Shown: positions 2,477 through 50,662 of the stretch, in pieces
Position numbering within the stretch: position 1 is the first letter of the stretch
How the letters are laid out: every line of letters starts with the position of its first letter
NCBI RefSeq assembly: GCF_003790525.1
Contig: NZ_CP033635.1
Strand: one strand, 5' to 3'
DNA length: 64,000 nt
DNA from: Escherichia coli
GTDB lineage: Bacteria > Pseudomonadota > Gammaproteobacteria > Enterobacterales > Enterobacteriaceae
Made by a program: the position numbers and the translations under genes
Notes under the pieces: model-generated
The model's input: the letters and a program-made list of their open reading frames with translations, nothing else
Told to the model about the DNA's origin: nothing
The model's database searches: none

Positions 2477-2587
2477 TAAAAAGAATTCAGAATCAGGCCG
2501 GAGTGCTAAACACTCCGTAAACACGGTCGTACATCCAGCCGGTAGCCTGGTTCCTTGCATTGAGTGATGTACGGAGTTTATAGAGCA

Positions 2588-7641: not shown

Positions 7642-8925
7642 ATGACAGAAGCGATGAAAATTACCCTCTCTACCCAACCTGCCGATGCGCGCTGGGGAGA
7701 AAAAGCAACTTACAGCATTAATAATGATGGCATTACCCTGCACTTGAACGGAGCGGACGATCTGGGGCTGATCCAGCGTGCGGCGCGCAAGATTGACGGT
7801 CTGGGCATCAAACATGTTCAGCTAAGCGGTGAAGGCTGGGATGCGGATCGTTGCTGGGCATTCTGGCAAGGTTACAAAGCCCCGAAAGGCACGCGTAAAG
7901 TGGAGTGGCCGGATCTGGACGATGTCCAGCGCCAGGAACTGGATAACCGCCTGATGATCATCGACTGGGTGCGTGACACCATTAACGCACCGGCGGAAGA
8001 GCTGGGGCCATCGCAACTGGCACAGCGTGCTGTTGATCTGATCAGCAATGTCGCGGGCGATCGTGTGACTTACCGGATCACCAAAGGCGAAGATCTGCGT
8101 GATCAAGGTTATATGGGGCTGCACACGGTCGGACGCGGTTCAGAACGTTCTCCGGTATTGCTGGCGCTGGATTACAACCCGACTGGCGATAAAGAAGCGC
8201 CAGTGTACGCGTGCCTGGTAGGTAAAGGTATCACTTTTGACTCCGGCGGCTACAGCATCAAACAGACCGCATTTATGGACTCGATGAAGTCGGACATGGG
8301 CGGCGCGGCAACGGTTACCGGGGCGCTGGCGTTTGCCATTACGCGCGGACTGAACAAGCGCGTGAAGCTGTTCCTCTGCTGTGCGGATAACCTGATCAGC
8401 GGCAACGCGTTCAAACTGGGCGATATTATTACCTATCGCAACGGTAAAAAAGTTGAAGTGATGAACACTGATGCGGAAGGGCGTCTGGTGCTGGCCGATG
8501 GCCTGATTGATGCCAGTGCGCAGAAACCGGAACTGATCATTGATGCGGCGACCCTCACCGGGGCGGCGAAAACTGCGCTGGGTAATGATTATCACGCGCT
8601 GTTCAGTTTTGACGATGCGCTTGCCGGTCGCTTGCTGGCGAGTGCCGCGCAGGAGAATGAACCGTTCTGGCGTCTGCCGCTGGCGGAGTTCCACCGCAGC
8701 CAGCTGCCGTCTAACTTTGCCGAACTGAACAATACCGGAAGCGCGGCGTACCCGGCAGGCGCGAGCACGGCGGCGGGCTTCCTGTCGCACTTTGTTGAGA
8801 ACTATCAGCAAGGCTGGCTGCATATCGACTGCTCGGCGACTTACCGTAAAGCGCCGGTTGAACAGTGGTCTGCGGGTGCTACGGGACTTGGTGTGCGCAC
8901 GATTGCTAATCTGTTAACGGCGTAA
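7642..8925 (+). CDS. pepB: Aminopeptidase B PepB
   Basis: 427-aa [25 protein letters not shown]17 peptidase family. Confidence 0.92.
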
Positions 8926-9066: not shown

Positions 9067-9843
9067 ATGTCCGAAACAAAAAATGAACTTGAAGACCTGC
9101 TGGAAAAAGCAGCAACCGAACCGGCGCACCGCCCGGCCTTTTTCCGTACTCTACTGGAATCCACCGTCTGGGTGCCGGGTACGGCGGCGCAGGGCGAGGC
9201 TGTGGTTGAAGATAGCGCGCTTGATTTACAGCACTGGGAAAAAGAAGACGGCACCAGCGTCATTCCTTTTTTTACCTCGTTAGAAGCACTTCAACAGGCG
9301 GTTGAAGACGAACAGGCATTTGTCGTAATGCCCGTTCGCACATTGTTTGAGATGACCCTTGGCGAAACGCTCTTCCTTAATGCCAAACTGCCAACCGGTA
9401 AAGAATTTATGCCGCGTGAAATCAGTTTGTTGATTGGTGAAGAAGGAAATCCGCTGAGCAGCCAGGAAGTACTGGAGGGCGGTGAATCGCTGATATTATC
9501 GGAAGTCGCAGAGCCACCAGCACAAATGATTGATTCTCTCACCACCTTATTTAAAACTATTAAGCCGGTGAAGCGTGCTTTTATTTGTTCAATTAAAGAG
9601 AACGAAGAGGCACAGCCTAATTTACTTATTGGCATTGAAGCCGATGGTGATATCGAAGAAATTATTCAGGCGGCGGGAAGTGTAGCGACCGATACAATAC
9701 CTGGCGATGAACCCATCGATATTTGTCAGGTGAAAAAAGGGGAAAAAGGAATTAGCCACTTTATTACCGAACATATTGTGCCATTCTATGAACGTCGCTG
9801 GGGTGGTTTTTTGCGTGACTTTAAACAGAACCGGATAATCTAA
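9067..9843 (+). CDS. sseB: SseB, enhancer of serine sensitivity
   Basis: 258 aa from MSETKNELEDLLEKAATEP; convergent with sseA. Confidence 0.85.
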   Translation: MSETKNELEDLLEKAATEPAHRPAFFRTLLESTVWVPGTAAQGEAVVEDSALDLQHWEKEDGTSVIPFFTSLEALQQAVEDEQAFVVMPVRTLFEMTLGETLFLNAKLPTGKEFMPREISLLIGEEGNPLSSQEVLEGGESLILSEVAEPPAQMIDSLTTLFKTIKPVKRAFICSIKENEEAQPNLLIGIEADGDIEEIIQAAGSVATDTIPGDEPIDICQVKKGEKGISHFITEHIVPFYERRWGGFLRDFKQNRII

Positions 9844-9945
9844 AATATGCCGCCCCAAAGGGCGGCATTCGGGCTTACCTGCTGTTCTGAAGGTTGTTAA
9901 CCACCAATAAATTGTTACCGGAGAGACTCCGGTTATTATTTACCT

Positions 9946-10325
9946 CGGTTAACAGCGCACCAGAAACAATAAGTACGATACAAAAGCACCGTATCTTCAT
10001 TGTGCGGTCCATGCGAAGACCGCATCACGACAGCACCACTGGCGATATTGCCGCGATAGCAAGCGCTGTGAAACACCTGCATTTACGGCCATGGAACATC
10101 CTTTCCTTAAGCCAGCGCCCGTTTGCGAGACGGCGGAAAGGGCCGGTGTCGATAATACGCTAAATAAACAATGATTACTCTCTTTCGCTTGACAAAAAGA
10201 GAGTTACTGGCGAGTATTGCTTTGCTGTGAAGCACCTGCGTTGCTCATGCAACACAAGCCAATCTGCTGGAAAGGCCGCGAACCAGACCAGCAATAAAAA
10301 ACCGCCAAATTCGGCGGTTTTTTAT
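9946..10325 (+). ncRNA. Candidate RyfA-like sRNA in the sseB-sseA intergenic region (strand and ends uncertain)
   Basis: About 500 bp non-coding gap between convergent genes; promoter-like TTGTTA-16-TATTAT at 9911-9938; strong hairpin plus T-run at 10300-10330; RyfA is known to lie between sseA and sseB in E. coli. Confidence 0.25.
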
Positions 10326-11185: not shown

Positions 11186-11391
11186 AGGCATCTCCATTTT
11201 TGCCGGGGTTAGGCTAAATTGTCGGATGTTTAGTGAAAAGCGACAAGCAAAAGAGGCTGATTTGGCTGTCTGAGCCACAATTCTCACTAAAATTCGGATT
11301 GTATGGGCGTGATACTGAATTACATAACGTAAATTCTCACGCATAATAATTATTCGACGTTGCTAACGGGCCATTGTGGCAGGGATGAAAA

Positions 11392-14300
11392 ATGAAAAAG
11401 TTACGCTTAGCCGCCTGCATGCTAATGCTGGCGCTGGCAGGGTGCGACAACAACGATAACGCGCCAACAGCGGTGAAAAAAGATGCACCTTCTGAAGTTA
11501 CTAAAGCGGCATCTTCAGAAAACGCGAGTTCAGCAAAACTCTCTGCACCGGAGCGACAGAAACTGGCCCAACAGAGTGCCGGTAAGGCGCTGACATTGCT
11601 GGATCTCTCTGAAGTCCAACTTGATGGCGCAGCCACGCTGGTGCTGACCTTCTCTATCCCTCTCGACCCGGATCAGGATTTCTCGCGCGTTATTCACGTC
11701 GTTGATAAAAAAAGCGGCAAAGTGGATGGGGCCTGGGAGCTGTCAGATAATCTTAAAGAGCTGCGTTTACGCCACCTCGAGCCGAAACGTGATTTGATCG
11801 TTACTATTGGCAAGGAGGTCAAGGCACTCAACAACGCAACCTTCAGTAAAGATTACGAAAAAACTATAACTACCCGCGATATCCAGCCCAGCGTCGGTTT
11901 TGCCAGCCGTGGTTCGCTGCTGCCTGGAAAAGTCATTGAAGGGCTGCCGGTAATGGCGCTCAATGTTAACAATGTCGATGTTAACTTCTTCCGTGTTAAG
12001 CCAGAATCTCTGCCAGCATTTATTAGCCAATGGGAATACCGCAATTCGCTGGCGAACTGGCAGTCAGATAAACTGCTGCAGATGGCGGATCTGGTCTACA
12101 CCGGACGGTTTGATCTCAATCCTGCGCGTAACACCCGTGAAAAATTATTGCTGCCGCTGGGCGATATCAAACCGCTTCAGCAGGCGGGCGTGTATCTGGC
12201 TGTGATGAATCAGGCTGGACGTTACGATTACAGTAATCCCGCGACGCTGTTTACGTTAAGTGATATTGGCGTTTCAGCTCACCGTTATCACAATCGTCTG
12301 GATATCTTTACCCAAAGTCTGGAAAACGGCGCGGCCCAGCAAGGAATTGAAGTCTCTTTATTAAATGAGAAAGGGCAGACTCTGACTCAGGCAACCAGTG
12401 ACGCTCAGGGGCATGTGCAGCTGGAAAATGATAAAAACGCGGCATTACTGCTGGCGCGTAAAAACGGTCAGACAACGCTGCTCGATTTAAAACTCCCGGC
12501 GCTGGACTTAGCGGAATTTAACATTGCTGGCGCGCCGGGCTATAGCAAACAGTTTTTCATGTTTGGCCCGCGCGATCTTTATCGCCCGGGTGAAACGGTC
12601 ATCCTCAATGGTTTGCTGCGTGATGCAGACGGTAAAGCATTGCCCGATCAACCCATCAAGTTAGACGTGATTAAACCCGACGGGCAGGTACTCAGGAGCG
12701 TCGTTAGTCAGCCGGAGAATGGCCTCTACCACTTTACCTGGCCACTCGATAGCAATGCGGCAACCGGTATGTGGCATATTCGCGCTAACACGGGCGATAA
12801 CCAGTATCGGATGTGGGATTTCCACGTCGAAGATTTTATGCCAGAGCGTATGGCGCTGAATCTGACCGGTGAGAAAACCCCGCTAACGCCGAAAGATGAA
12901 GTGAAATTCTCCGTGGTGGGGTACTACCTGTATGGTGCACCTGCTAATGGTAATACTTTGCAAGGGCAACTTTTCCTGCGCCCACTGCGTGAAGCTGTGT
13001 CAGCCTTACCTGGTTTTGAATTCGGCGATATAGCTGCCGAAAATCTTTCCCGCACGCTGGATGAAGTTCAGTTGACGCTGGATGATAAAGGGCGTGGCGA
13101 AGTTTCCACTGAAAGCCAGTGGAAGGAAACGCATTCCCCATTACAGGTTATTTTCCAGGGGAGTTTGTTGGAATCGGGCGGTCGCCCGGTGACGCGCCGC
13201 GCTGAGCAGGCTATCTGGCCTGCCGATGCATTGCCGGGGATCCGTCCGCAGTTCGCCTCGAAATCGGTTTACGATTATCGCACTGACAGCACGGTGAAAC
13301 AGCCCATTGTTGATGAAGGCAGTAACGCCGCTTTTGACATCGTTTATAGCGATGCGCAAGGCGTAAAAAAAGCCGTGTCGGGCTTGCAGGTGCGCCTGAT
13401 TCGCGAACGCCGCGATTACTACTGGAACTGGTCAGAAGATGAAGGCTGGCAGTCACAGTTTGATCAAAAAGATCTGATTGAAAATGAACAAACTCTGGAT
13501 CTGAAAGCGGACGAAACCGGCAAGGTCAGTTTCCCGGTAGAGTGGGGCGCTTATCGTCTGGAAGTCAAAGCGCCGAATGAAGCGGTCAGTAGTGTGCGTT
13601 TCTGGGCTGGCTATAGCTGGCAGGACAACAGCGACGGGAGCGGTGCCGTGCGACCCGACCGTGTCACGCTGAAACTGGATAAAGCCAGTTATCGCCCTGG
13701 CGATACCATTAAGTTGCATATTGCCGCGCCAACGGCGGGTAAAGGTTATGCGATGGTCGAGTCCAGTGAAGGGCCGCTGTGGTGGCAAGAGATTGATGTT
13801 CCGGCTCAAGGGCTGGATCTGACGATTCCGGTAAATAAAACCTGGAATCGTCATGATCTTTATTTGAGTACGCTGGTGGTGCGTCCTGGCGATAAATCTC
13901 GCTCCGCGACGCCAAAACGCGCGGTTGGGGTGTTGCATCTGCCGCTTGGTGATGAAAACCGTCGCCTCGATCTGGCGCTGGAAACCCCCACCAAAATGCG
14001 CCCCAATCAGCCATTAACCGTGAAAATTAAAGCCAGCACTAAAAATGGTGAGATGCCAAAACAGGTGAATGTGCTGGTGTCTGCCGTTGATAGCGGTGTG
14101 CTGAATATTACTGATTACGTCACGCCAGATCCGTGGCAGGCGTTCTTTGGTCAGAAACGCTATGGCGCAGACATTTACGATATTTACGGTCAGGTTATTG
14201 AAGGTCAGGGGCGTCTGGCAGCTCTGCGTTTCGGTGGCGATGGTGATGAGCTGAAACGTGGTGGTAAACCGCCGGTCAATCACGTCAATATTGTCGCGCA

Positions 14301-16350
14301 GCAGGCGCTGCCGGTAACGCTCAACGAACAGGGCGAAGGCTCGGTTACACTGCCAATTGGCGATTTTAATGGTGAGTTACGAGTCATGGCGCAGGCCTGG
14401 ACAGCAGATGATTTCGGTAGCAACGAAAGCAAAGTGGTTGTTGCCGCACCGGTGATAGCAGAACTGAACATGCCGCGCTTTATGGCCAGCGGTGACACCT
14501 CACGTCTGACGCTGGATATCACTAATCTTACCGATAAACCGCAAAAACTGAACGTTGCCCTGACCGCCAGTGGTTTGCTTGAACTGGTCAGCGATTCACC
14601 CGCAGCCGTTGAATTAGCGCCAGGTGTGCGTACTACGCTGTTTATCCCGGTGCGAGCATTGCCGGGTTATGGTGATGGTGAAATTCAGGCCACCATTAGC
14701 GGGTTAGCGTTACCCGGGGAAACCGTTGCCGATCAGCATAAACAGTGGAAAATCGGCGTCCGTCCGGCGTTCCCGGCACAAACGGTCAATTACGGTACGG
14801 CGTTGCAGCCTGGTGAGACATGGGCGATTCCGGCGGATGGATTGCAAAACTTCTCGCCTGTTACGCTGGAAGGGCAATTGTTGTTGAGCGGCAAACCACC
14901 GCTGAACATCGCAAGTTATATCAAAGAGTTAAAAGCGTATCCGTACGGCTGTCTTGAGCAAACCGCCAGCGGCCTGTTCCCGTCACTTTATACCAACGCA
15001 GCCCAACTGCAGGCGTTGGGCATCAAAGGCGACAGTGATGAGAAACGCCGTGCATCGGTCGATATCGGCATTTCCCGTTTGCTGCAAATGCAACGTGATA
15101 ACGGCGGCTTTGCGCTGTGGGATAAAAACGGTGACGAAGAGTACTGGCTGACGGCTTACGTGATGGATTTCCTGGTCCGCGCAGGTGAGCAGGGTTACAG
15201 CGTGCCGACAGACGCCATTAACCGGGGAAATGAGCGTCTGCTGCGCTATTTACAAGATCCGGGCATGATGTCGATCCCGTACGCGGATAATCTCAAAGCC
15301 AGTAAATTCGCCGTACAGTCTTACGCTGCGCTGGTGCTGGCCCGTCAGCAAAAAGCTCCACTGGGTGCGCTGCGTGAAATCTGGGAGCATCGTGCAGATG
15401 CCGCTTCTGGTTTACCGCTGCTGCAACTTGGCGTTGCGCTGAAAACCATGGGTGATGCGACGCGTGGTGAAGAAGCAATTGCGCTGGCGCTGAAAACGCC
15501 GCGTAATGATGAGCGGAAATGGCTGGGTGATTACGGTAGCCCACTGCGCGACAACGCGTTAATGCTCTCCTTGCTGGAAGAAAATAAACTGCTACCCGAT
15601 GAGCAGAACACTTTGCTGAATACGCTTTCGCAGCAGGCGTTTGGTGAACGCTGGCTATCGACGCAGGAAAGTAACGCGTTGTTCCTGGCTGCCCGTACGG
15701 TTCAGGATTTACCGGGTAAATGGCAGGCGCAAACCTCTTTCTCAGCTGAGCCGCTGACAGGCGAGAAAGCGCAAACCAGCAATCTGAATAGCGATCAACT
15801 TGCCACCTTGCAGGTGACCAACAGTGGCGATCAGCCGTTATGGCTGCGTGTGGATGCCAGCGGTTATCCGCAATCCGCACCTTTACCGGCGAACAATGTG
15901 CTGCAAATCGAGCGTCATATTCTTGGTACTGATGGTAAGAGCAAATCGCTGGACTCGTTACGTAGCGGCGATCTGGTGCTGGTGTGGTTGCAGGTTAAAG
16001 CCAGTAACAGCGTGCCGGATGCGTTGGTCGTGGATCTGCTGCCAGCGGGTCTGGAACTGGAAAACCAGAATCTGGCGAACGGTAGCGCCAGCCTGGAGCA
16101 AAGTGGTGGCGAAGTGCAGAACTTACTGAACCAGATGCAGCAGGCGAGTATTAAGCACATTGAGTTCCGTGACGATCGCTTTGTGGCGGCGGTTGCCGTT
16201 GATGAATACCAACCGGTAACGCTGGTGTATCTGGCGCGGGCGGTGACGCCGGGAACGTATCAGGTACCGCAACCGATGGTGGAATCAATGTATGTTCCCC
16301 AATGGCGGGCGACCGGCGCGGCTGAAGATTTGCTAATTGTCAGACCGTAA
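11392..16350 (+). CDS. yfhM: Alpha-2-macroglobulin family lipoprotein YfhM
   Basis: 1652-aa ORF with lipoprotein signal MKKLRLAACMLMLALAGC; stop abuts pbpC start. Confidence 0.92.
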   Translation: MKKLRLAACMLMLALAGCDNNDNAPTAVKKDAPSEVTKAASSENASSAKLSAPERQKLAQQSAGKALTLLDLSEVQLDGAATLVLTFSIPLDPDQDFSRVIHVVDKKSGKVDGAWELSDNLKELRLRHLEPKRDLIVTIGKEVKALNNATFSKDYEKTITTRDIQPSVGFASRGSLLPGKVIEGLPVMALNVNNVDVNFFRVKPESLPAFISQWEYRNSLANWQSDKLLQMADLVYTGRFDLNPARNTREKLLLPLGDIKPLQQAGVYLAVMNQAGRYDYSNPATLFTLSDIGVSAHRYHNRLDIFTQSLENGAAQQGIEVSLLNEKGQTLTQATSDAQGHVQLENDKNAALLLARKNGQTTLLDLKLPALDLAEFNIAGAPGYSKQFFMFGPRDLYRPGETVILNGLLRDADGKALPDQPIKLDVIKPDGQVLRSVVSQPENGLYHFTWPLDSNAATGMWHIRANTGDNQYRMWDFHVEDFMPERMALNLTGEKTPLTPKDEVKFSVVGYYLYGAPANGNTLQGQLFLRPLREAVSALPGFEFGDIAAENLSRTLDEVQLTLDDKGRGEVSTESQWKETHSPLQVIFQGSLLESGGRPVTRRAEQAIWPADALPGIRPQFASKSVYDYRTDSTVKQPIVDEGSNAAFDIVYSDAQGVKKAVSGLQVRLIRERRDYYWNWSEDEGWQSQFDQKDLIENEQTLDLKADETGKVSFPVEWGAYRLEVKAPNEAVSSVRFWAGYSWQDNSDGSGAVRPDRVTLKLDKASYRPGDTIKLHIAAPTAGKGYAMVESSEGPLWWQEIDVPAQGLDLTIPVNKTWNRHDLYLSTLVVRPGDKSRSATPKRAVGVLHLPLGDENRRLDLALETPTKMRPNQPLTVKIKASTKNGEMPKQVNVLVSAVDSGVLNITDYVTPDPWQAFFGQKRYGADIYDIYGQVIEGQGRLAALRFGGDGDELKRGGKPPVNHVNIVAQQALPVTLNEQGEGSVTLPIGDFNGELRVMAQAWTADDFGSNESKVVVAAPVIAELNMPRFMASGDTSRLTLDITNLTDKPQKLNVALTASGLLELVSDSPAAVELAPGVRTTLFIPVRALPGYGDGEIQATISGLALPGETVADQHKQWKIGVRPAFPAQTVNYGTALQPGETWAIPADGLQNFSPVTLEGQLLLSGKPPLNIASYIKELKAYPYGCLEQTASGLFPSLYTNAAQLQALGIKGDSDEKRRASVDIGISRLLQMQRDNGGFALWDKNGDEEYWLTAYVMDFLVRAGEQGYSVPTDAINRGNERLLRYLQDPGMMSIPYADNLKASKFAVQSYAALVLARQQKAPLGALREIWEHRADAASGLPLLQLGVALKTMGDATRGEEAIALALKTPRNDERKWLGDYGSPLRDNALMLSLLEENKLLPDEQNTLLNTLSQQAFGERWLSTQESNALFLAARTVQDLPGKWQAQTSFSAEPLTGEKAQTSNLNSDQLATLQVTNSGDQPLWLRVDASGYPQSAPLPANNVLQIERHILGTDGKSKSLDSLRSGDLVLVWLQVKASNSVPDALVVDLLPAGLELENQNLANGSASLEQSGGEVQNLLNQMQQASIKHIEFRDDRFVAAVAVDEYQPVTLVYLARAVTPGTYQVPQPMVESMYVPQWRATGAAEDLLIVRP

Positions 16351-18663
16351 ATGCCTCGCTTGTTAACCAAACGCGGCTGCTGGATAACGCTGGCAGCTGC
16401 GCCATTTCTCCTTTTTCTTGCAGCGTGGGGAGCAGATAAACTCTGGCCTCTACCGCTGCATGAAGTCAATCCCGCACGAGTGGTTGTGGCGCAGGATGGG
16501 ACGCCGCTCTGGCGCTTTGCCGATGCGGAAGGCATCTGGCGTTATCCGGTAACAATCGAAGATGTTTCTCCACGTTACCTTGAAGCGCTGATCAATTATG
16601 AAGATCGCTGGTTCTGGAAGCATCCGGGGGTGAATCCATTCTCGGTGGCGCGCGCAGCATGGCAAGATCTCACTTCGGGAAGGGTTATTTCCGGTGGCAG
16701 CACGCTCACTATGCAGGTTGCTCGTCTGCTTGATCCTCACCCCAAAACATTTGGCGGCAAAATTCGCCAGCTCTGGCGCGCGTTGCAACTGGAGTGGCAT
16801 CTGTCTAAGCGTGAAATTCTGACCTTGTATCTTAACCGCGCTCCGTTTGGCGGTACGTTGCAGGGGATCGGTGCGGCAAGTTGGGCTTATCTCGGAAAAT
16901 CGCCTGCGAATTTAAGCTATTCCGAGGCGGCAATGCTGGCGGTGTTGCCGCAAGCGCCCAGCCGACTGCGCCCGGATCGCTGGCCGGAACGTGCCGAAGC
17001 CGCGCGTAATAAAGTGCTCGAAAGGATGGCCGTGCAAGGTGTGTGGTCCCGTGAGCAGGTAAAAGAGTCAAGGGAAGAACCCATCTGGCTGGCACCCCGA
17101 CAAATGCCGCAACTGGCACCGCTGTTTTCGCGCATGATGCTCGGTAAAAGCAAAAGCGACAAAATCGTTACGACGCTGGATGCCGGTCTTCAACGACGTC
17201 TGGAAGAACTGGCGCAAAACTGGAAAGGACGATTACCACCGCGCAGCTCACTGGCGATGATCGTGGTTGATCATACCGATATGCGTGTTCGCGGCTGGGT
17301 GGGTTCGGTTGATCTCAACGATGATTCACGCTTTGGTCATGTTGATATGGTCAATGCGATCCGATCGCCAGGATCGGTGCTCAAACCGTTTGTTTATGGT
17401 CTGGCGCTGGATGAAGGCTTGATCCACCCGGCATCGCTGTTGCAAGACGTCCCCCGACGCACCGGTGATTACCGACCTGGCAACTTTGACAGCGGTTTTC
17501 ATGGCCCGATCAGCATGAGTGAGGCGCTGGTGCGATCGCTGAACTTACCTGCTGTGCAGGTGCTGGAAGCCTATGGACCGAAACGGTTTGCGGCAAAGTT
17601 ACGCAATGTTGGATTGCCGTTATATTTGCCCAACGGTGCTGCACCGAATCTTTCGCTCATTCTCGGCGGCGCTGGCGCAAAACTGGAAGATATGGCGGCA
17701 GCGTATACCGCGTTTGCTCGCCACGGCAAGGCAGGCAAATTGCGCTTACAGCCTGACGATCCGCTGCTTGAACGGCCTTTAATGTCGTCGGGGGCTGCGT
17801 GGATCATTCGCCGGATTATGGCTGATGAAGCGCAACCCTTGCCGGATGGTGCCTTGCCGCGCGTCGCCCCACTGGCATGGAAAACGGGCACCAGCTATGG
17901 CTATCGTGATGCCTGGGCGATTGGGGTTAACGCTCGCTATGTCATTGGGATCTGGACTGGCAGACCGGACGGCACGCCCGTTGTTGGTCAGTTTGGCTTT
18001 GCCAGCGCCGTACCATTGTTGAATCAGGTCAATAATATCTTACTGTCGCGCAGTGCGAATCTGCCGGAAGACCCACGTCCTGACTCTGTAAGTCGTGGCG
18101 TTATCTGCTGGCCGGGCGGACAGTCTTTGCCGGAAGGTGACAGTAACTGTCGCCGCCGCCTGGCAACCTGGCTGCTGGACGGGAGTCAGCCGCCAACTCT
18201 ATTACTGCCGGAGCAGGAAGGCATTAATGGCATTCGTTTCCCCATCTGGCTGGATGAAAACGGCAAACGTGTTGCCGCTGATTGCCCTCAGGCGCGACAA
18301 GAAATGATAAATGTCTGGCCGCTACCGCTGGAACCCTGGCTGCCCGCATCAGAACGTCGCGCTGTGCGCTTGCCACCGGCCTCGACAATTTGCCCGCCAT
18401 ACGGTCACGATGCACAACTCCCGCTGCAGCTAACAGGTGTGCGCGATGGCGCGATTATTAAACGTTTACCGGGCGCAGCGGAAGCGACTTTGCCGTTACA
18501 ATCAAGTGGAGGGGCAGGTGAACGCTGGTGGTTTCTGAACGGCGAACCGTTAACTGAACGTGGGCGCAACGTGACCCTGCATTTGACGGATAAAGGCGAT
18601 TATCAATTGCTGGTGATGGATGAGGTGGGGCAAATAGCGACAGTGAAATTTGTCATGCAATAG
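16351..18663 (+). CDS. pbpC: Penicillin-binding protein 1C
   Basis: 770-aa ORF with transglycosylase and transpeptidase regions; ATG immediately after yfhM stop. Confidence 0.92.
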   Translation: MPRLLTKRGCWITLAAAPFLLFLAAWGADKLWPLPLHEVNPARVVVAQDGTPLWRFADAEGIWRYPVTIEDVSPRYLEALINYEDRWFWKHPGVNPFSVARAAWQDLTSGRVISGGSTLTMQVARLLDPHPKTFGGKIRQLWRALQLEWHLSKREILTLYLNRAPFGGTLQGIGAASWAYLGKSPANLSYSEAAMLAVLPQAPSRLRPDRWPERAEAARNKVLERMAVQGVWSREQVKESREEPIWLAPRQMPQLAPLFSRMMLGKSKSDKIVTTLDAGLQRRLEELAQNWKGRLPPRSSLAMIVVDHTDMRVRGWVGSVDLNDDSRFGHVDMVNAIRSPGSVLKPFVYGLALDEGLIHPASLLQDVPRRTGDYRPGNFDSGFHGPISMSEALVRSLNLPAVQVLEAYGPKRFAAKLRNVGLPLYLPNGAAPNLSLILGGAGAKLEDMAAAYTAFARHGKAGKLRLQPDDPLLERPLMSSGAAWIIRRIMADEAQPLPDGALPRVAPLAWKTGTSYGYRDAWAIGVNARYVIGIWTGRPDGTPVVGQFGFASAVPLLNQVNNILLSRSANLPEDPRPDSVSRGVICWPGGQSLPEGDSNCRRRLATWLLDGSQPPTLLLPEQEGINGIRFPIWLDENGKRVAADCPQARQEMINVWPLPLEPWLPASERRAVRLPPASTICPPYGHDAQLPLQLTGVRDGAIIKRLPGAAEATLPLQSSGGAGERWWFLNGEPLTERGRNVTLHLTDKGDYQLLVMDEVGQIATVKFVMQ

Positions 18664-18811
18664 TCTGTTTTGTCCCTGATTGTTGCTTAAACTGGGTTTA
18701 TTTTAAAAAAATGTTACCTTCATCAATAGTCAACGGCTCTGTTGCTCATTATAATCCGCGCCATCTCGTACGCTGGTACAGACAACAACAGAACAATTTA
18801 CAGAGGTAAAA

Positions 18812-19243: not shown

Positions 19244-19392
19244 TAATTTCGTAAATGCCGCGTGCAAACGTGGCATCCGTGCGCCAGAATTTGTACAATG
19301 CAGCGCCCCCGGACGAGCAGCCGCTCACCGGGGCGTTTCTTTTTTCAACCCTCCAGGGGCCATAACGTGTAATAACGAGGCCGGAATAGCAT

Positions 19393-21868: not shown

Positions 21869-22987
21869 ATGCATAACCAGGCTCCAATTCAACGTAGAAA
21901 ATCAACACGTATTTACGTTGGGAATGTGCCGATTGGCGATGGTGCTCCCATCGCCGTACAGTCCATGACCAATACGCGTACGACAGACGTCGAAGCAACG
22001 GTCAATCAAATCAAGGCGCTGGAACGTGTTGGCGCTGATATCGTCCGTGTCTCCGTACCGACGATGGACGCGGCAGAAGCGTTCAAACTCATCAAACAGC
22101 AGGTTAACGTGCCGCTGGTGGCTGACATCCACTTCGACTATCGCATTGCGCTGAAAGTAGCGGAATACGGCGTCGATTGTCTGCGTATTAACCCTGGCAA
22201 TATCGGTAATGAAGAGCGTATTCGCATGGTGGTTGACTGTGCGCGCGATAAAAACATTCCGATCCGTATTGGCGTTAACGCCGGATCGCTGGAAAAAGAT
22301 CTGCAAGAAAAGTATGGCGAACCGACGCCGCAGGCGTTGCTGGAATCTGCCATGCGTCATGTTGATCATCTCGATCGCCTGAACTTCGAACAGTTCAAAG
22401 TCAGCGTGAAAGCGTCAGACGTCTTCCTCGCTGTTGAGTCTTATCGTTTGCTGGCAAAACAGATCGATCAGCCGCTGCATCTGGGGATCACCGAAGCGGG
22501 TGGTGCGCGCAGCGGGGCGGTTAAATCCGCCATTGGTTTAGGTCTGCTGCTGTCTGAAGGCATCGGCGACACGCTGCGCGTATCGCTGGCGGCCGATCCG
22601 GTCGAAGAGATCAAAGTCGGTTTCGATATTTTGAAATCGCTGCGTATCCGTTCGCGCGGGATCAACTTCATCGCCTGCCCGACCTGTTCGCGTCAGGAAT
22701 TTGATGTTATCGGTACGGTTAACGCGCTGGAGCAACGCCTGGAAGATATCATCACTCCGATGGACGTTTCGATTATCGGCTGCGTGGTGAATGGCCCAGG
22801 TGAGGCGCTGGTTTCTACACTCGGCGTCACCGGCGGCAACAAGAAAAGCGGCCTCTATGAAGATGGCGTGCGCAAAGACCGTCTGGACAACAACGATATG
22901 ATCGATCAGCTGGAAGCGCGCATTCGTGCGAAAGCCAGTCAGCTGGACGAAGCGCGTCGAATTGACGTTCAGCAGGTTGAAAAATAA
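21869..22987 (+). CDS. ispG: HMBPP synthase IspG
   Basis: 372-aa [39 protein letters not shown]. Confidence 0.95.
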
Positions 22988-23097
22988 TAACGTGATGGGA
23001 AGCGCCTCGCTTCCCGTGTATGATTGAACCCGCATGGCTCCCGAAACATTGAGGGAAGCGTTGAGGGTTCATTTTTATATTCAGAAAGAGAATAAAC

Positions 23098-44379: not shown

Positions 44380-44425
44380 TTAACAGCTAACTCATAGCAA
44401 CTCATTCCTATTCAGACACTAATTT

Positions 44426-44458
44426 AACCCTCTGTTTTTACAGAGGGTTTTTGTTTTT
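44426..44458 (+). terminator. Intrinsic terminator of guaA
   Basis: aaccctctg-ttttt-acagagggtt followed by tttgttttt. Confidence 0.6.
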
Positions 44459-44514
44459 ATGTATTCATTTCTATTCACTCTACACCATATTTTTTGGCGG
44501 TACAGGTGACGGTA

Positions 44515-44529
44515 TTACCTTAAAGGTAT
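44515..44529. promoter_or_regulatory. Operator-like palindrome TTACCttaaaGGTAt upstream of integrase
   Basis: Member of the recurring TTACC-N5-GGTAA motif family. Confidence 0.4.
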
Positions 44530-44571
44530 ACTCTCATACCGTCATGAAAATGGTTTCTATACGGGTGAATT

Positions 44572-45822
44572 GTGCTTACCGATACAAAATTAAAGAACCT
44601 CAAGCCACAGGACAAACTGTACAAAGTTTCCGATCGTGACGGGCTGTATGTAGCTGTGCTTACGTCAGGTACGGTCTCGTTTCGCTATGACTACCGTATC
44701 AACGGTCGCCGCGAAACACTGGTAATCGGGCAGTATGGGCGTGACGGTATCAGCCTGGCAGAAGCGCGAGAAGAACTGATTGCTGCAAAGAAGCTGCTTA
44801 AAGCAGGCCAGTCGCCGGCTGCGGCTAAACGTGACGGTATCAAAAAGATTCGTGGTGCCGAGACGTTTGCGGTACATACCGACAGTTATATGAAACACGT
44901 CATCCTGGCTGAAAGTACCCGCGCAATGAAGCAGGCAGTGATCGACCGTGACATACTTCCTGTTCTTGGCAACAAAATGATGACTGAAATTACCACATCG
45001 ATGGTTCGTGATTTGTGTGACCGGATTGTCGAACGCGGTGGTCGGGCAACAGCAGTACAGGCCAGGGAGATCATTAGCAGCGTATACCGTCACGCCAATG
45101 ACCGTGGTCATGGTTTGTTTAATCCTGCGGCTGACATTAAACCTTCGTCTATCGCCATATTTAAACCACGAGAGCGAACACTGACACCAGAAGAAATTGG
45201 TCTGTTCTTCCGCACGCTGGATGCCATTGGTGCTATGGGCACTATGAAAATGGCTTTAAAGCTGGTGCTTATCACTATGGTTCGTAAAGGCGAATTCACC
45301 AATGCAACGTGGGACGAAATAGATTTTAAAAAATGGACATGGACAATTCCTTCAGACCGCATGAAGGGAAGCCGGGCGCACGTTATTTACCTGCCAAAAC
45401 AGGCACAGGATATATTGGTTGGGTTGCAGATGTGCGCTGGTGGAAGTGAATATCTGGTTCCTGGTCGTTACAATTTCCGGAAGCCATTATCTAATGCCGC
45501 ACTGAACTCTCTGATCGACAGAACGGTGAAAATAATAAATGAAGATGGTGAGCATATTCAGGGCTTCACCGTACACGATATGCGCCGTACAGCCAGTACG
45601 TTGTTGCATGAGGCTGGTTATCCTTCAGACTGGATTGAAAAGGCTCTGGCACATGAGCAGAAAGGTGTGCGCGCCGTATATAACAAAGCGGAATACGCCA
45701 GACAGCGCGCCTACATGTTGCAGCAGTGGGCCGATATGATTGATTCCTGGATTAACGGGGAGCATACGGATCTAATTCCGTTCTCCCCGTCGAAGTTTGA
45801 GAAGTGGATGGCGGGGGAATAA
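44572..45822 (+). CDS. Tyrosine-type phage integrase (P4-like family)
   Basis: 416-aa ORF MLTDTKLKNLKPQDKLYKVSDRDGLYVAV..., C-terminal HDMRRTASTLL and catalytic-region motifs; GTG start. Confidence 0.85.
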   Translation: MLTDTKLKNLKPQDKLYKVSDRDGLYVAVLTSGTVSFRYDYRINGRRETLVIGQYGRDGISLAEAREELIAAKKLLKAGQSPAAAKRDGIKKIRGAETFAVHTDSYMKHVILAESTRAMKQAVIDRDILPVLGNKMMTEITTSMVRDLCDRIVERGGRATAVQAREIISSVYRHANDRGHGLFNPAADIKPSSIAIFKPRERTLTPEEIGLFFRTLDAIGAMGTMKMALKLVLITMVRKGEFTNATWDEIDFKKWTWTIPSDRMKGSRAHVIYLPKQAQDILVGLQMCAGGSEYLVPGRYNFRKPLSNAALNSLIDRTVKIINEDGEHIQGFTVHDMRRTASTLLHEAGYPSDWIEKALAHEQKGVRAVYNKAEYARQRAYMLQQWADMIDSWINGEHTDLIPFSPSKFEKWMAGE

Positions 45823-45825
45823 CGT

Positions 45826-46020
45826 TTAATAGTTCTGCTGATTTTCTTCCATCTCTGCTTCTGCTGCCAGTGATTCAATTTTGTTTTCGAATATTGCTGA
45901 CAGTGTTGCAAATTCAGCATCAGTGACAGCGGGAATTGGAACAAACCTGATCCCGCTGTGTGCAAGCATGTTTGCAGTTTCAAGGCATTTTCTTAAATCT
46001 GCTGGTGATGCCCTGTTCAT
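45826..46020 (-). CDS. Hypothetical small acidic protein
   Basis: Internal Met of ORF 45826..46140 positioned right after methylase stop; weak support. Confidence 0.2.
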   Translation of the reverse strand: MNRASPADLRKCLETANMLAHSGIRFVPIPAVTDAEFATLSAIFENKIESLAAEAEMEENQQNY

Positions 46021-46679
46021 GCAGCACGCTCCCGCCCCTGGTTGTCTGTTGGTGACAGCGGAGAATTGCTGAATGCATTTGTTAATCCGCCAATATCCAA
46101 CGCGTATCCAGGGTGTAGTTGCACTGCCGAGTTTTCGCACTGATTACCCCAAACATCGAAGCCATGAGACGACTGGCGGGCGAACAGTTCAATGCGAGAA
46201 ACATCGCCTAACAATTGCACAAGTTTTTCACGAACGACATCTGGTTTTCTTGAGTGCTCAAGCCGCGGTGCGGTAAATGACTGAACGATCCCTGCATTAA
46301 TGCGCGGAGGTAGTTTTCCCTTTACCGCAAACAGGCAATCTTCACTATTGGCGCGGGTCATGTGTCCCATACCCATAACCAGTTTATCTGGTTGTCGACT
46401 ACCACATTTTATCCACGTGAAGCCCTTCATGGTCATAAGACGAAATCCCCAGGCTTCAACAACTTTTAGTGCTTCGAGTGGTTGTGTTGGCACCCACCAC
46501 ATGGCCAACAGACAGTTTTCAGCGGCCAAATCCCACACAGGAAGGCGGCAGATATCCAGCACACTCATAACTGGATATTTAAAACCGGCACCGCGATTAC
46601 CATCTGCGGCTTTGTCCCGGTATACCCAGGGTGGATCTGCATAGATTAGTGTGTATTTCTTAGTCATAAACCACCCCAC
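46017..46679 (-). CDS. DNA N6-adenine methyltransferase (MT-A70-like, orphan)
   Basis: 220-aa ORF with DPPW motif (YTLIYADPPWVYR); no adjacent restriction endonuclease recognised. Confidence 0.7.
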   Translation of the reverse strand: MGWFMTKKYTLIYADPPWVYRDKAADGNRGAGFKYPVMSVLDICRLPVWDLAAENCLLAMWWVPTQPLEALKVVEAWGFRLMTMKGFTWIKCGSRQPDKLVMGMGHMTRANSEDCLFAVKGKLPPRINAGIVQSFTAPRLEHSRKPDVVREKLVQLLGDVSRIELFARQSSHGFDVWGNQCENSAVQLHPGYALDIGGLTNAFSNSPLSPTDNQGRERAA

Positions 46680-47068
46680 AACATCCTATGCCGCCATAGT
46701 CGCCACGGCGAAGGCCGTTACCTTTTGTGATACATTGGTCCCTGCGAACCGCGATCCTTGCACGCTCAACATCACCAGAAGCAACATCCATACACTGAAG
46801 CCAAAGGTGAGCGGCAATGCGGAACTGCCCTTTTTTCTCTCTTTCAATCGCGCGTTTTTCGATCTCTATCGCCGCAGGAGTAACGGCGACAATCTTTGAC
46901 GGACTGCGCATTGAAACCTTGTTCATGTGATATTTTTCAAGTCGGCTTAACTTTCTCACTTAATCCAACCCTCTCTGAAAATTAATGCCAGCAGATAAAG
47001 CCATGCTGAAACAGAGGCCAGGAATAAGTACCATCCTGACCATTTGCTCCAGTGCCTTAGCAGCACAC

Positions 47069-47317
47069 TCATGCAGCGTTGCTCACAGGACGATATACAC
47101 GTTGCTGAACAGGAGGCTTTTTACCCTGGAACTCTGCCGGGCTTGCTGCCTGACGTTCATCAAGCCAACGCTCAACTTCATCACGGTTCCATGCGCAGCG
47201 TTTATCGGTGATATACCAGCGTTTAGGAAATTCCCCTGCGCGCTCCATACGGTCGATAGTGCTCCATGACAGTGGCACCACCGCCAGGAGTTCCTTCTTA
47301 CCTAATGCACCTTTCAT
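47069..47317 (-). CDS. AlpA-family phage regulator / excisionase-like
   Basis: 82-aa ORF with ...STIDRMERAGEFPKRWYITDKRCAWNRDEVERWL... Confidence 0.55.
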   Translation of the reverse strand: MKGALGKKELLAVVPLSWSTIDRMERAGEFPKRWYITDKRCAWNRDEVERWLDERQAASPAEFQGKKPPVQQRVYRPVSNAA

Positions 47318-47366
47318 AAATACCTCTCTTGGTTGCAGTGCGGCGCGCGTGGCGCCGCGGTGGTGG

Positions 47367-48248
47367 TTACATAGATGTTTCGTTTAATTCTTCCCGACGA
47401 ACGCTGTAAACGTCGGTGGCTTTTGCCAGCAGTTCGTCATCATCTGAAAGTTTTTGTGCAATGTATTTGTAAGCCTTATCCAGTTCGGAGACAGTGCTGT
47501 AATTCATCGCTGCGCTGGTAAAGGCCATCAGCATTTCTTCTGGCTCACGGCTATCCGCTTTACGCGTTTGCTCATCAGGCTTTTTCACTGATTTAGCGTT
47601 GATCAGACTGTTCATTCCCGCAGCCGTAGTCATTTGCGGAGTAATGTCTCGCTCAACGCGCGGTGCCGTTTCCTGTAATTCGTCAGGGGTGTAAACACCG
47701 AGAAGTACATCAGGAGCGTGCAGGCGAGCCCATCGTTTCGTGCAAAGATATGCAAGTTGCTGGCGCGGATCCTGTTCCCACAATGGAGAGTTACGCACTC
47801 CTGCTTGCGCCATACTGATGGTAAGCTCACGTGGTTCTGCTTCTCCTTTAAGAACTGCTGACACAGTTACCGTCAGATTCGGTGATTTATCTGTTTTGCC
47901 GTTAACATTCGACCAGTCACCGCTCCAGCGATAATTCAGGCGTGTCGCCAGCAGGCTGGAAGAGGATACGACCGCGTTTACCAACTGTGCTTCGTAGCCT
48001 AACGTTCCGTTTACCACATGCGTTTTCTGCGCCACGGCGAAAGGGTTCATTCCCCACTGTGCCGCCTGCATGGTCACCGCCAGGCAATCGGCAGGTTTGC
48101 CTTCAAGATGTTTCGGTACAGTCGCTTTGCTTTGTGACATCAACTCCGCGAAACGCACCAGTTGATTCATACCCTCGGGGCTGAAGATTGCAGCAGCAGT
48201 GCCTACAGTTGCGCCTGGTTGTGATGTGATTGCGATATCATTGCTCAT
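47367..48248 (-). CDS. Single-strand annealing protein (Bet/RecT-like)
   Basis: 293-aa ORF with QAAQWGMNPF segment resembling lambda Bet; directly downstream of exonuclease-like gene. Confidence 0.5.
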   Translation of the reverse strand: MSNDIAITSQPGATVGTAAAIFSPEGMNQLVRFAELMSQSKATVPKHLEGKPADCLAVTMQAAQWGMNPFAVAQKTHVVNGTLGYEAQLVNAVVSSSSLLATRLNYRWSGDWSNVNGKTDKSPNLTVTVSAVLKGEAEPRELTISMAQAGVRNSPLWEQDPRQQLAYLCTKRWARLHAPDVLLGVYTPDELQETAPRVERDITPQMTTAAGMNSLINAKSVKKPDEQTRKADSREPEEMLMAFTSAAMNYSTVSELDKAYKYIAQKLSDDDELLAKATDVYSVRREELNETSM

Positions 48249-49066
48249 ACGTACATATCCTGTTTACGTGCCCAGTCAGGGCGTTTAATAATTTCCACTC
48301 CGCCCCATTCATCGTTGATGCGGCATTCGTGATAGGTATTCAGATCCCGGCGGAACAGAGCGTGCCCGGCATCGACATCCTGCGCATCCAGCTCGAACAC
48401 GCGTACCGGATACCGACCACAATCAATGCTTTCGCTCACGGCAAGAAAGAAAAAACCATGCGGCTGACCAGTAACCATCATTGCGCCTTCGCGGTACATT
48501 GCGTCCTGCACGTGGTAGCGGAATTCCTCGATGTGGCGTGCAAAACGGTCCATATCTGCAACCTTTTTCACGTCGACGATCACGTTGTGCTCGTTCAGCC
48601 ATTTGTCTGGACGAATTCGGCACAACTCCCCCGTCTCTTCATCGTTCCAGTACATTGATGCTTCGCAGTAACCAGGTGCTTCCAGCATCCAGCGTGCCGC
48701 CGGGTGAGCCATTGCGCTATCACGCATCAGCTCCAGTTTCCGCCACTGCTCGGCATCAAGTACCGTAATCCCCATATCCGCCACATCACGAAGAAATTCC
48801 TCTTCGTCAGCTTTACCTTGTTTCGTCCGACGATCGAATTTCGGTGAAACAATGAAGCGTTTGTCGAACTCTCCAGGCTCCAGAAGCAGACAGTGCAATG
48901 CGGTTCCCATATCCAGTGCAGACTTTTTCTCTTCGTCTTCTGGTGCTGCCTGAACCCATTTAAGAAGCGCCGGATTCTTGGCAACCATGTCCAGTTGCGA
49001 CTTACTCACGCCGTCACCGGCGTGGTAGTCTTCGTTGCTGATGTCGAAATAAATTCCCGGTTTCAT
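48245..49066 (-). CDS. Putative PD-(D/E)xK recombination exonuclease
   Basis: 273-aa ORF with D...IVDVKKV motif, overlapping start/stop with annealase gene. Confidence 0.5.
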   Translation of the reverse strand: MKPGIYFDISNEDYHAGDGVSKSQLDMVAKNPALLKWVQAAPEDEEKKSALDMGTALHCLLLEPGEFDKRFIVSPKFDRRTKQGKADEEEFLRDVADMGITVLDAEQWRKLELMRDSAMAHPAARWMLEAPGYCEASMYWNDEETGELCRIRPDKWLNEHNVIVDVKKVADMDRFARHIEEFRYHVQDAMYREGAMMVTGQPHGFFFLAVSESIDCGRYPVRVFELDAQDVDAGHALFRRDLNTYHECRINDEWGGVEIIKRPDWARKQDMYV

Positions 49067-49377
49067 GCCGCGTCCCTCTGCCCATCAAGCTGATCAGCCA
49101 GATCCCAGCGGGCGATAATTGCCATTGCCTCGCGCCGGTAGGCATCCATTAGTTCTTCGAACTCAGGGCTGTCTTTAGCGGCCTCCAGTACTTCCTGGCG
49201 AACGCCTTTAACTGTTACAACGTCGAAAGTTGATGCCAGTTGATGAAGCCGGATACTCTCAATCAGTTCAACTTGTCGGTCATATAGCTGTTCTGACAGA
49301 CGGTAGTCCTTGTCGAATGCCAGCATGATTTTTTGAAGATTTTTCTGCTGATTAACGTTCATTATCAGCCCTCCCAT
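49063..49377 (-). CDS. Hypothetical early protein
   Basis: 104-aa ORF, first gene of leftward operon, overlapping stop with exonuclease gene. Confidence 0.4.
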   Translation of the reverse strand: MGGLIMNVNQQKNLQKIMLAFDKDYRLSEQLYDRQVELIESIRLHQLASTFDVVTVKGVRQEVLEAAKDSPEFEELMDAYRREAMAIIARWDLADQLDGQRDAA

Positions 49378-49526
49378 ATCTCGTTATCGTTGGCCACATC
49401 GCGAGCTTCTTTGCTGACGAAAGCCCACTTAATGCCTTCCTGTAAGGTGCGGAACTTCCAGCTCATGAATCCGCATGCAGTAACGCAGTACCAACCGTTG
49501 ATGATTTTCCACTGCATAACTTGTTA

Positions 49527-49603
49527 CCTCGGTCTGTTACCGTTGAGGTAATAATTATGCGTATATGGTTTGATGTCAATAGATATGAGTTAAAAAAATT
49601 ACC
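49527..49603. promoter_or_regulatory. OL-like operator pair (two perfect TTACC-N5-GGTAA palindromes)
   Basis: TTACCgttgaGGTAA at 49527-49541 and TTACCcgttaGGTAA at 49589-49603, between leftward early operon and repressor gene. Confidence 0.5.
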
Positions 49604-49670
49604 CGTTAGGTAATCGAATAGGCAATAAAAAAGCCGCCATAAGGCGGCTTACTTACTGAAAAATATGGTT

Positions 49671-50255: not shown

Positions 50256-50310
50256 TTTCTGGAAAATCGCCTCATATATGAATCAGTAGATGATTCAATT
50301 TAAAGCAATA

Positions 50311-50373
50311 TTACCCAACAGGTAAATGCACCTCATGGGTAACTATCCTTGATTTTTGTTACCTTATGGGTGA
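50311..50373. promoter_or_regulatory. OR-like operator cluster between repressor and cro-like genes
   Basis: TTACCcaacaGGTAA (50311-50325), weak gcACCtcatgGGTAA (50328-50342), TTACCttatgGGTgA (50359-50373); promoter-like TTGTTA-17-TATTAT overlaps. Confidence 0.5.
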
Positions 50374-50409
50374 ATATTTATTATCTGAAATAAATATCAG
50401 GCAATAGCT

Positions 50410-50640: not shown

Positions 50641-50662
50641 TATCCAGCTACAACCCTCTGTA

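Follow-up and report, generated by a model that had tools for sequence, protein, structure and literature searches.

The 64,000-nucleotide (nt) stretch of Escherichia coli DNA analysed here (NCBI RefSeq assembly GCF_003790525.1, contig NZ_CP033635.1), to which we refer as the window, carries the gene pair yfhM–pbpC, in which the stop codon of the first gene, coding for a bacterial alpha-2-macroglobulin (A2M), directly abuts the start codon of the second, coding for PBP1C. The abutment itself is already known and belongs to textbook annotation. The first-pass annotation of this DNA had seen no terminator between the two genes; however, a conserved, GC-rich stem-loop starts 22 nt past the yfhM stop, within pbpC (16372-16401). 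This stem-loop, which appears to be undescribed, is, to judge from its pattern of conservation, very probably a functional RNA element, which would lower the output of pbpC relative to that of yfhM. Together with the lack of a Shine-Dalgarno sequence ahead of pbpC, it argues for obligatory coupling of the two genes with unequal output.

The stem-loop covers codons 8-17 of pbpC, that is, +22 to +51 counted from the start codon, on the plus strand (16372..16401), and was recognised through folding, RNAalifold covariation and a covariance model. It consists of CGCGGCTGCTGG ATAACG CTGGCAGCTGCG, which form a GC-rich stem of 12 base pairs with a loop of 6 nt and a predicted energy of -20.1 kcal/mol. 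In K-12 (NC_000913.3), the stem-loop is located on the complement strand at 2647304-2647275. Its conservation was assessed in an alignment of 27 sequences in which the gap between the A2M stop codon and the pbpC start codon is 0-1 nt. The RNAalifold consensus of these sequences recovers the stem with covariation: 94.1% of the alignment cells are paired, compared with 75.6 +/- 1.5% in shuffled alignments, the covariation score is 0.513 against 0.174 in the shuffles, and none of the 500 shuffles matches the observed values. When the register of the stem is slid by 1-3 columns, the paired fraction falls to 33-58% and the covariation score to 0.08-0.18. Both sides have changed in nine of the 12 pairs, several positions of the stem are represented by 4-6 types of Watson-Crick or wobble pair, and 22 further pair types are found overall. 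These substitutions alter the encoded protein on both arms of the stem: the peptide reads RGCW...LAAA in Escherichia, RSRW...LAGA in Enterobacter and Lelliottia, and KSRW...LAGF in Pluralibacter. The stem-loop is a clean natural case of a coding-region RNA structure that has been kept at the cost of amino-acid changes, and it goes together with the loss, described below, of both spacer and Shine-Dalgarno sequence.

In 27 of 28 sequences, conserved G-U pairs give the sense strand a more stable fold than its antisense counterpart, which points to an element that works as RNA, within the yfhM-pbpC transcript. A DNA palindrome or an antisense element is unlikely for the same reason.

For a comparative survey, 17 diverse A2M C-terminal regions were aligned, and with this alignment 80 loci were retrieved from Enterobacterales and Pseudomonas, each from a species-representative genome. 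The folding energy of pbpC +16..+66 was then compared with that obtained after synonymous-codon resampling with the peptide kept. Loci with gaps of up to 12 nt (n=34), which we call tight, have a mean minimum free energy of -24.4 kcal/mol and a mean z of -2.69 against the synonymous resampling. The corresponding values are -9.4 kcal/mol and z = -0.35 for gaps of 28-120 nt (n=19), and -16.9 kcal/mol and z = +0.39 for longer gaps (n=19). The difference in folding between tight and longer gaps gives p = 2e-10 in a Mann-Whitney test, a value uncorrected for relatedness.

A covariance model (R1), built from 28 sequences, scores 47 bits at the site in the window and has no other strong match in the 64 kb. 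Its strong matches in the survey lie solely at pbpC +16..+60 of tight-junction loci, including three loci that were not part of the model, and there are none in long-gap loci. An element of the repeated REP (repetitive extragenic palindromic) type was rejected on the grounds of the single strong match in the window. No relevant Rfam family was matched between 15800 and 17000 at E values up to 10, and, within a limited coverage of the literature, no paper was found that links pbpC or yfhM to a stem-loop or a terminator. The model also gives weak matches (14.5-20 bits) about 3 kb downstream, at ~8460-8700, in 13 loci (L008, L010, L011, L014-L016, L018, L019, L027, L028, L031, L033 and L049). From the lengths of the genes, this is putatively the place where the ndk terminator is expected; in K-12, the 3′ end of that terminator has been mapped to 2644336, and its equivalent in the window is 19322-19335 plus a T-run.

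Hairpins are also present at this place where the sequence is not shared. In Cedecea, Hafnia and Mangrovibacter, for instance, hairpins of unrelated sequence occur at the same position in pbpC, and in most tight-junction genera the stem starts at +22/+23 from the pbpC start codon. Long-gap Enterobacterales have a strong hairpin in the spacer, which starts 3-28 nt past the A2M stop and is often followed by a T-run. Examples are the spacer hairpins of Proteus (AGCCCTTTCTTTGGAAAGGGCT TTTTCTTTG) and Photorhabdus (TCAGCCCTTACGCTTAGGCGTAAGGGCTGA TTTCTTGTC) and that of Xenorhabdus, where the stem is followed by CCGCTTTTTT. Judged from the loci sampled, the common feature is a predicted hairpin no more than ~35 nt away from where the A2M gene ends, which is found inside pbpC where the spacer is gone.

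Other structures around the junction are less well conserved. The predicted fold of 120 nt at the junction (-48.1 kcal/mol, z = -3.3) combines a long hairpin over the stop and start codons with the 12-bp hairpin at 16372-16401. The large hairpin (16303-16365), which would sequester the start codon, was rejected as a conserved element: only 53.4% of the cells of its outer stem are paired in the 27 sequences, and the RNAalifold consensus lacks it. Its apical part, a hairpin predicted over the final 10 codons of yfhM, ends at the stop codon (16318..16348, plus strand). This hairpin is weakly conserved and its status is uncertain, with 74.7% of cells paired and four pairs changed on both sides among the 27 sequences; it does better than its own slid registers, yet it is far weaker than the stem-loop in pbpC.

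Spacing and the missing Shine-Dalgarno sequence

In the window, yfhM (also known as ECAM) occupies 11392..16350 on the plus strand and codes for 1652 amino acids, as supported by the list of open reading frames (ORFs), by Pfam and by the RefSeq annotation of yfhM in 100%-identical genomes. Its stop codon, TAA, lies at 16348..16350, as read from the sequence, the ORF list and the K-12 annotation. The ATG of pbpC (16351..16353, plus strand) is in frame and is the first codon past this stop according to both sequence and ORF list, and the pbpC coding sequence, of 770 amino acids, extends over 16351..18663 on the same strand (ORF list, Pfam and RefSeq annotation). The junction thus reads GTCAGACCG TAA ATG CCTCGCTTG, with a spacer of 0 nt. 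Because the two ORFs share a reading frame and are separated by a lone TAA, the pbpC ATG is the first codon available past the stop, and an N-terminal extension of PbpC is impossible.

This arrangement is not peculiar to the strain. Several E. coli genomes, that of SMS-3-5 among them, match the 1.1 kb surrounding the junction at 100% identity, and the junction region is found in 5425 of 5426 complete E. coli genomes. A zero spacer is also annotated by RefSeq in SMS-3-5, in three divergent strains and in K-12 MG1655, where the genes lie on the complement strand (pbpC at 2645013..2647325 and yfhM at 2647326..2652287), and TAAATG is unchanged across an alignment of five divergent E. coli sequences. 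ATG or GTG stands at the column of the pbpC start in all 27 aligned sequences. The abutment of the two genes is not due to chance, as a start 0 or 1 nt past the A2M stop has been kept across ~15 genera.

The first-pass annotation was therefore right in placing the stop and the start side by side, which the K-12 comparison that it proposed bears out, and in naming the genes, whose Pfam domain sets are those of an alpha-2-macroglobulin and of PBP1C. The conserved pairing and the proposal of a protease trap combined with cell-wall repair, to which it referred, are indeed established in the literature: the yfhM-pbpC operon and this hypothesis are presented by Fyfe 2015 (PMC4498604) and by Neves 2012 (PMC3328433), which refer to Budd 2004, as does Robert-Genthon 2013 (PMC3735191), where the lipoprotein character of this class of A2M is also described. 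These papers present the genes as adjacent or as an operon; the missing Shine-Dalgarno sequence, the lineage-dependent spacing and the stem-loop are mentioned in none of them.

By contrast, tightness does not hold as a trait of the conserved pairing. A PbpC homologue is found downstream on the same strand in 78 of the 80 loci, and the spacing ranges from 0 to ~2000 nt. The start codon lies 0 or 1 nt past the A2M stop in 25 of the 80, from ~15 genera. The spacing is 0 nt in Escherichia and Citrobacter, and also in Salmonella and Raoultella, and 1 nt in 17 loci (Enterobacter, Kluyvera, Kosakonia, Pluralibacter, Lelliottia, Phytobacter and others), about half of which begin with GTG. It is 3-12 nt in Cedecea, Mangrovibacter, Pantoea and Hafnia, ~30-120 nt in Serratia, Yersinia, Photorhabdus, Xenorhabdus, Proteus and Budvicia, and 170 to ~2000 nt in Providencia, Moellerella and most Pseudomonas. 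Within this sampling, the tight junction is to be regarded as lineage-specific. The spacer of the Pseudomonas loci, of 400-1250 nt, contains a conserved ORF of 97 amino acids on the opposite strand (L056 5592-5885, L067 5541-5834, L068 5568-5861, L085 5719-6012, L070 6041-6334 and L069 6395-6688), apparently coding for a small membrane protein (MHVEGFFEWLGQ...SWIIH) without a match to a Pfam family. As this ORF lies in the spacer, the pair would not be an uninterrupted operon there.

The spacing is accompanied by a change in the signals for initiation. The place where the Shine-Dalgarno sequence of pbpC would be expected is taken by the last codons of yfhM (16326..16347, plus strand), and none is found there by the energy of the duplex with the anti-Shine-Dalgarno sequence. 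The best duplex with the 3′ end of 16S rRNA in the 25 nt upstream of pbpC has +0.4 kcal/mol, which is weaker than at ~98% of random positions in the window, and the start of yfhM itself has -6.0 kcal/mol. Across the survey, the mean duplex energy is +0.31 kcal/mol at gaps of 0-1 nt (n=25), -2.5 at 3-12 nt (n=8), -4.5 at 13-120 nt (n=19) and -4.4 at >120 nt (n=20). Expressed in another way, the Shine-Dalgarno sequence is absent in all 25 sampled loci with a gap of 0-1 nt and present at gaps of at least 13 nt.

As pbpC has no Shine-Dalgarno sequence, its translation is probably dependent on that of yfhM. It has been shown experimentally that coupling by termination and reinitiation requires an overlap or a very short distance between the genes (Huber 2019, PMC6728339; Huber 2023, PMC10666635), and it is reported to collapse at a distance of ~20 nt (PMC10666635). 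Since the strength of the Shine-Dalgarno sequence tracks the spacing in our survey, these experiments make it most likely that PbpC of E. coli is produced through reinitiation by the ribosome that has finished yfhM. On these sequence grounds, we consider it probable that pbpC translation depends on yfhM translation and that the junction is a device for obligatory coupling. The coupling suggested by the first-pass annotation is thus plausible, and is strengthened by the missing Shine-Dalgarno sequence, but the sequence does not suggest equal co-expression, nor the tight co-expression that it proposed.

Two further features of the start region can be described. The accessibility of the AUG is ordinary, with a mean unpaired probability of 0.36 near the start compared with 0.33 overall and a median rank of 0.40, and an open AUG window held by flanking hairpins was consequently rejected. 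Additionally, among the 17 loci whose gap is 1 nt, the pbpC start is inferred to be GTG, and not ATG, in eight (L012, L014, L018, L021-L023, L031 and L050), which fits weak, coupling-dependent initiation.

Possible modes of action of the stem-loop

The reading that we favour, tentatively and somewhat short of calling it probable, combines obligatory translational coupling with an attenuating hairpin, partial termination being the preferred form of attenuation, with more YfhM than PbpC as the outcome. According to this model, ribosomes finishing yfhM would reinitiate at the abutting AUG, which would be the main source of pbpC translation and would make PbpC synthesis dependent on YfhM synthesis. 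The hairpin in pbpC would functionally be the 3′ end of the yfhM cistron and would act as a partial intrinsic terminator or attenuator. Since the stem starts 22 nt past the stop, a ribosome on the stop codon would leave it uncovered, and the hairpin could form behind RNA polymerase; a reinitiated ribosome advancing into pbpC would then melt it. As a net result, yfhM would be expressed above pbpC, and the output of pbpC would remain tied to the translation of yfhM. In Escherichia, where the U-tract is degraded, termination is probably weak, and the hairpin may rather damp reinitiation or elongation, or protect the yfhM message. The resulting YfhM:PbpC ratio bears on whether the two proteins would form a stoichiometric complex or combine an abundant trap with a scarce enzyme, the functional link between them being still a hypothesis.

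The element scores as an intrinsic terminator in Salmonella and in at least nine further genera with a tight junction, but not in E. coli. Terminators were scored by a method of the d'Aubenton-Carafa type with ViennaRNA energies, for which the zero threshold is approximate. The score exceeds zero in nine tight-junction and six long-gap loci and lies between -20 and 0 in many more; for reference, 120 random 100-nt windows inside pbpC have a mean of -51.9 and a maximum not above -18. In Salmonella, a stem of -25.4 kcal/mol is directly followed by UUUUUAUUUU, and its U-tract, TTTTTATTTT, has an excess of T with z = +2.98. T-richness beyond what the peptide imposes is clear in Salmonella, Pluralibacter, Cedecea and some others. 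It has also been reviewed that ribosomes can block terminator hairpins (PMC12548453). The stem-loop offers a tractable system for the interplay of terminator, hairpin and reinitiating ribosome at spacerless gene boundaries.

Several observations weigh against this reading, particularly for E. coli. The U-rich stretch past the stem in the window (CCATTTCTCCTTTTTCTT, 16402..16419, plus strand, as read from the sequence) also codes for part of the PbpC membrane anchor, and, across the loci, the U-enrichment beyond the constraint of the peptide is modest overall (mean z ~ +1). The E. coli tail, CCAUUUCUCCUUUUU, is an interrupted U-tract, which is not that of a canonical terminator; the eight nucleotides directly past the stem in the window, CCATTTCT, include four T and do not form a U-tract. 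The stem-loop of E. coli was not flagged by a consensus terminator scan, its terminator score is -39, and its tail shows no excess of T over the encoded peptide (z = -0.47). Not one of the curated K-12 3′ ends that Term-seq yielded under three conditions (Adams 2021, PMC7815308) falls in yfhM or pbpC, although the terminator of ndk next door (2644336) is present in the same lists, and two further datasets (from the TRS paper and the operon-dynamics paper) have no entries for 3′ ends in these genes. This absence is weak negative evidence, since such lists are made up of prominent ends and favour well-expressed transcripts, and expression of the operon is low. Additionally, the starts of pbpC outside E. 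coli were assigned by homology to the E. coli N-terminus and by position, and the surveyed loci are phylogenetically related, so that p-values overstate their independence.

The alternative that survives best, although we regard it as rather unlikely, is that the hairpin is purely translational. Lying beyond the footprint of a ribosome bound at the AUG, it would damp or time reinitiation and the early elongation of pbpC, keeping the PbpC:YfhM ratio low without ending transcripts. The weak U-tract of E. coli and the lack of a 3′ end in the Term-seq data fit such a brake, as does the fact that the stem keeps its distance from the start codon (+17 to +23) even at gaps of 11-12 nt, where its distance from the stop shifts to 29-34 nt. 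Moreover, a library screen showed a negative correlation between coupling and predicted structure just past the upstream stop (reviewed in PMC12548453). A brake on translation would, however, leave unexplained why long-gap loci have a hairpin and a T-run directly past the A2M stop, ahead of a normal Shine-Dalgarno sequence, and why the tails are significantly enriched in U in Salmonella, Pluralibacter, Cedecea and others.

It is unlikely, too, that the stem-loop is a terminator strictly gated by reinitiation, at which polymerase would stop ~55-66 nt into pbpC unless a ribosome reinitiates and melts the hairpin in time. If this were true, the transcription of pbpC would hinge on translational reinitiation, through a device contained within the first ~20 codons of pbpC, and the loss of the spacer in Enterobacteriaceae would have re-created an ordinary intergenic attenuator inside a coding sequence.

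The stem-loop could instead be a protective structure or processing site for a 3′ end, which, after distal cleavage or decay, would block 3′-to-5′ exonucleases and stabilise the yfhM part of the transcript. We find this doubtful. Nearly all Enterobacterales in the survey have a strong hairpin at most ~35 nt past the A2M stop, regardless of where pbpC starts, which is the layout expected of an element serving the upstream cistron, and a protector would have no need of a U-tract, in agreement with E. coli. Nevertheless, Term-seq also picks up stable processed 3′ ends and none is listed at the site, and the U-tracts that exceed the constraint of the peptide in several genera would be needless for a simple stabiliser.

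The abutment would be of little consequence if pbpC were expressed largely independently, with its own promoter within yfhM and with de novo initiation that needs no Shine-Dalgarno sequence. Such initiation does occur in E. coli. A peak for the RpoE holoenzyme obtained in vitro by SELEX (systematic evolution of ligands by exponential enrichment) has been reported within yfhM (Shimada 2017, PMC5493296; W3110 coordinate 2649866, listed between pbpC and sseA), but its W3110 coordinates do not allow it to be placed relative to the junction. Furthermore, a consensus scan found no sigma-70-like match on the plus strand from 11347 to 18727. The consensus scan for promoters and terminators, which covered 10-20 kb, yielded sites no more numerous than in shuffled sequence, and the promoter-like matches upstream of yfhM (11319-11347) and of ndk (18727-18755) carry, as a consequence, little weight. 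The region of the AUG is not unusually open (see above), and the fact that the Shine-Dalgarno sequence is systematically lost solely at gaps of 0-1 nt suggests that the ribosome arriving from upstream is needed. Independent expression is, in summary, improbable.

Still less can be said for plain co-expression, in which a single transcript and equal coupling would suffice and the stem-loop would be a by-product of peptide and codon usage with no role of its own. The genes do abut and are annotated as operon partners, and the TGG:CTG part of the stem follows from a conserved Trp and Leu. Against this very improbable explanation, sequences resampled synonymously with the peptide kept fold much more weakly than the tight loci, the double changes are non-synonymous on both arms with the pairing preserved, unrelated hairpins occupy the same place in Cedecea and Hafnia, and the peptide motif itself is gone in genera without the hairpin.

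Finally, a functionally significant YfhM-PbpC fusion by readthrough of the TAA can practically be dismissed: the frame is shared here and in Escherichia, Citrobacter, Salmonella and Raoultella, but it is not conserved, given the 1-nt gap of 17 loci and the 3-12 nt of others, TAA is the most efficient stop codon, and the membrane anchor of PbpC would presumably follow a periplasmic protein in an inverted topology.

Encoded proteins and the rest of the window

YfhM has ten Pfam domains of the A2M family above their gathering scores, between residues 59 and 1637 (bMG1, MG2, bMG3, bMG5, bMG6, bait region, A2M, TED, CUB and bMG10), which correspond to a complete bacterial A2M. Its signal peptide, MKKLRLAACMLMLALAGC, was read from the translation by eye and carries a lipobox with Cys18 (LAGC; 11392..11445, plus strand). 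The thioester motif CLEQ (KAYPYGCLEQTASGLF; 14950..14961, plus strand) occupies residues 1187-1190 of the translation, and its C, E and Q are invariant in the alignment of 17 A2M sequences. The protein is identical to YfhM of K-12 at 1630 of 1653 positions (98.6%). It has 1652 residues compared with 1653 in K-12, as one codon is absent at residue 1373 (window ~15507-15512; TPRNSDERIW in K-12, TPRN-DERKW here). For the K-12 protein, ECAM, protease-trapping activity has been shown in the literature cited by PMC4498604 and PMC3328433. PbpC, identical to its K-12 counterpart at 761 of 770 positions, has Transgly (PF00912), Transpeptidase (PF00905) and the PBP1C-specific C-terminal domain BiPBP_C (PF06832), all above the Pfam cut-offs. 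Its N-terminal membrane anchor, judged by eye, consists of a basic N-terminus followed by WITLAAAPFLLFLAAW.

With regard to the remainder of the window, a scan with Rfam at gathering thresholds gives ryfA, iscRS, sroE and a tRNA only. The known RNA elements are those expected for the region: ryfA at 9842-10146 (minus strand), with which the toxin gene timP is annotated in the reference, the iscRS stability element at 2477-2586 (plus strand) and sroE at 22987-23078 (plus strand). Up to 44381, where guaA ends, the window follows E. coli SMS-3-5 collinearly at 99.99-100% identity, and its last 19.6 kb (44382-64000) form a segment different from that of SMS-3-5. This mobile-looking segment contains a tRNA-Arg with anticodon TCT at 59988-60064 (minus strand; ARAGORN, and the Rfam tRNA model with 69.4 bits), which related records place between hypothetical proteins. 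The 1.3 kb around it is covered to at least 80% in just 54 of 5426 E. coli genomes and is also found on 41-kb plasmid-like records. These observations suggest that 44382-64000 is a prophage or a phage-plasmid-like insertion adjoining guaA.

Relation to known systems

At the level of the gene pair, the genes studied here do not differ from the yfhM (ECAM)-pbpC pair known in Gram-negative bacteria. Genes, order and strand are the same, with a lipoprotein A2M bearing CLEQ followed by PBP1C, and the arrangement is that of K-12.

The junction is closest to the pairs described for termination-reinitiation (PMC6728339, PMC10666635 and PMC12548453), which it resembles in being co-directional, with virtually no spacing and no independent signal for the downstream gene. 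The collapse of coupling at ~20 nt in those systems matches the return of the Shine-Dalgarno sequence in long-gap genera. By contrast, reinitiation pairs are commonly spaced by -4 and -1 nt, and yfhM-pbpC by 0 nt (or +1), where coupling is predicted from the sequence. Moreover, the usual description of such pairs does not include a conserved, stable hairpin 22 nt downstream.

Terminators and attenuators inside operons set unequal expression, for instance, between rplL and rpoB and within rpsU-dnaG-rpoD. The element described here is similar in having a GC-rich stem-loop soon after the upstream stop, a U-run in many genera and an expected excess of the upstream product. It differs in that, in Enterobacteriaceae, it lies wholly in the downstream coding sequence and has been kept through amino-acid changes, and in that E. 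coli has a poor U-tract and no reported 3′ end at the pbpC hairpin. A likeness to leader-peptide attenuators (such as that of trp) may also be seen, as hairpin formation would hinge on the position of the ribosome, an analogy that is drawn in PMC12548453. Unlike these attenuators, the pbpC hairpin has neither a leader peptide nor an antiterminator pairing, and control would, hypothetically, be exerted by reinitiation at a full-length gene. A further comparison is with intercistronic stem-loops that stabilise the upstream mRNA, such as the REP elements in malE-malF. These are likewise stable hairpins located just past the better-expressed upstream gene, but, in contrast to REP elements, the pbpC hairpin is present as a single copy in 64 kb and lies in coding sequence.

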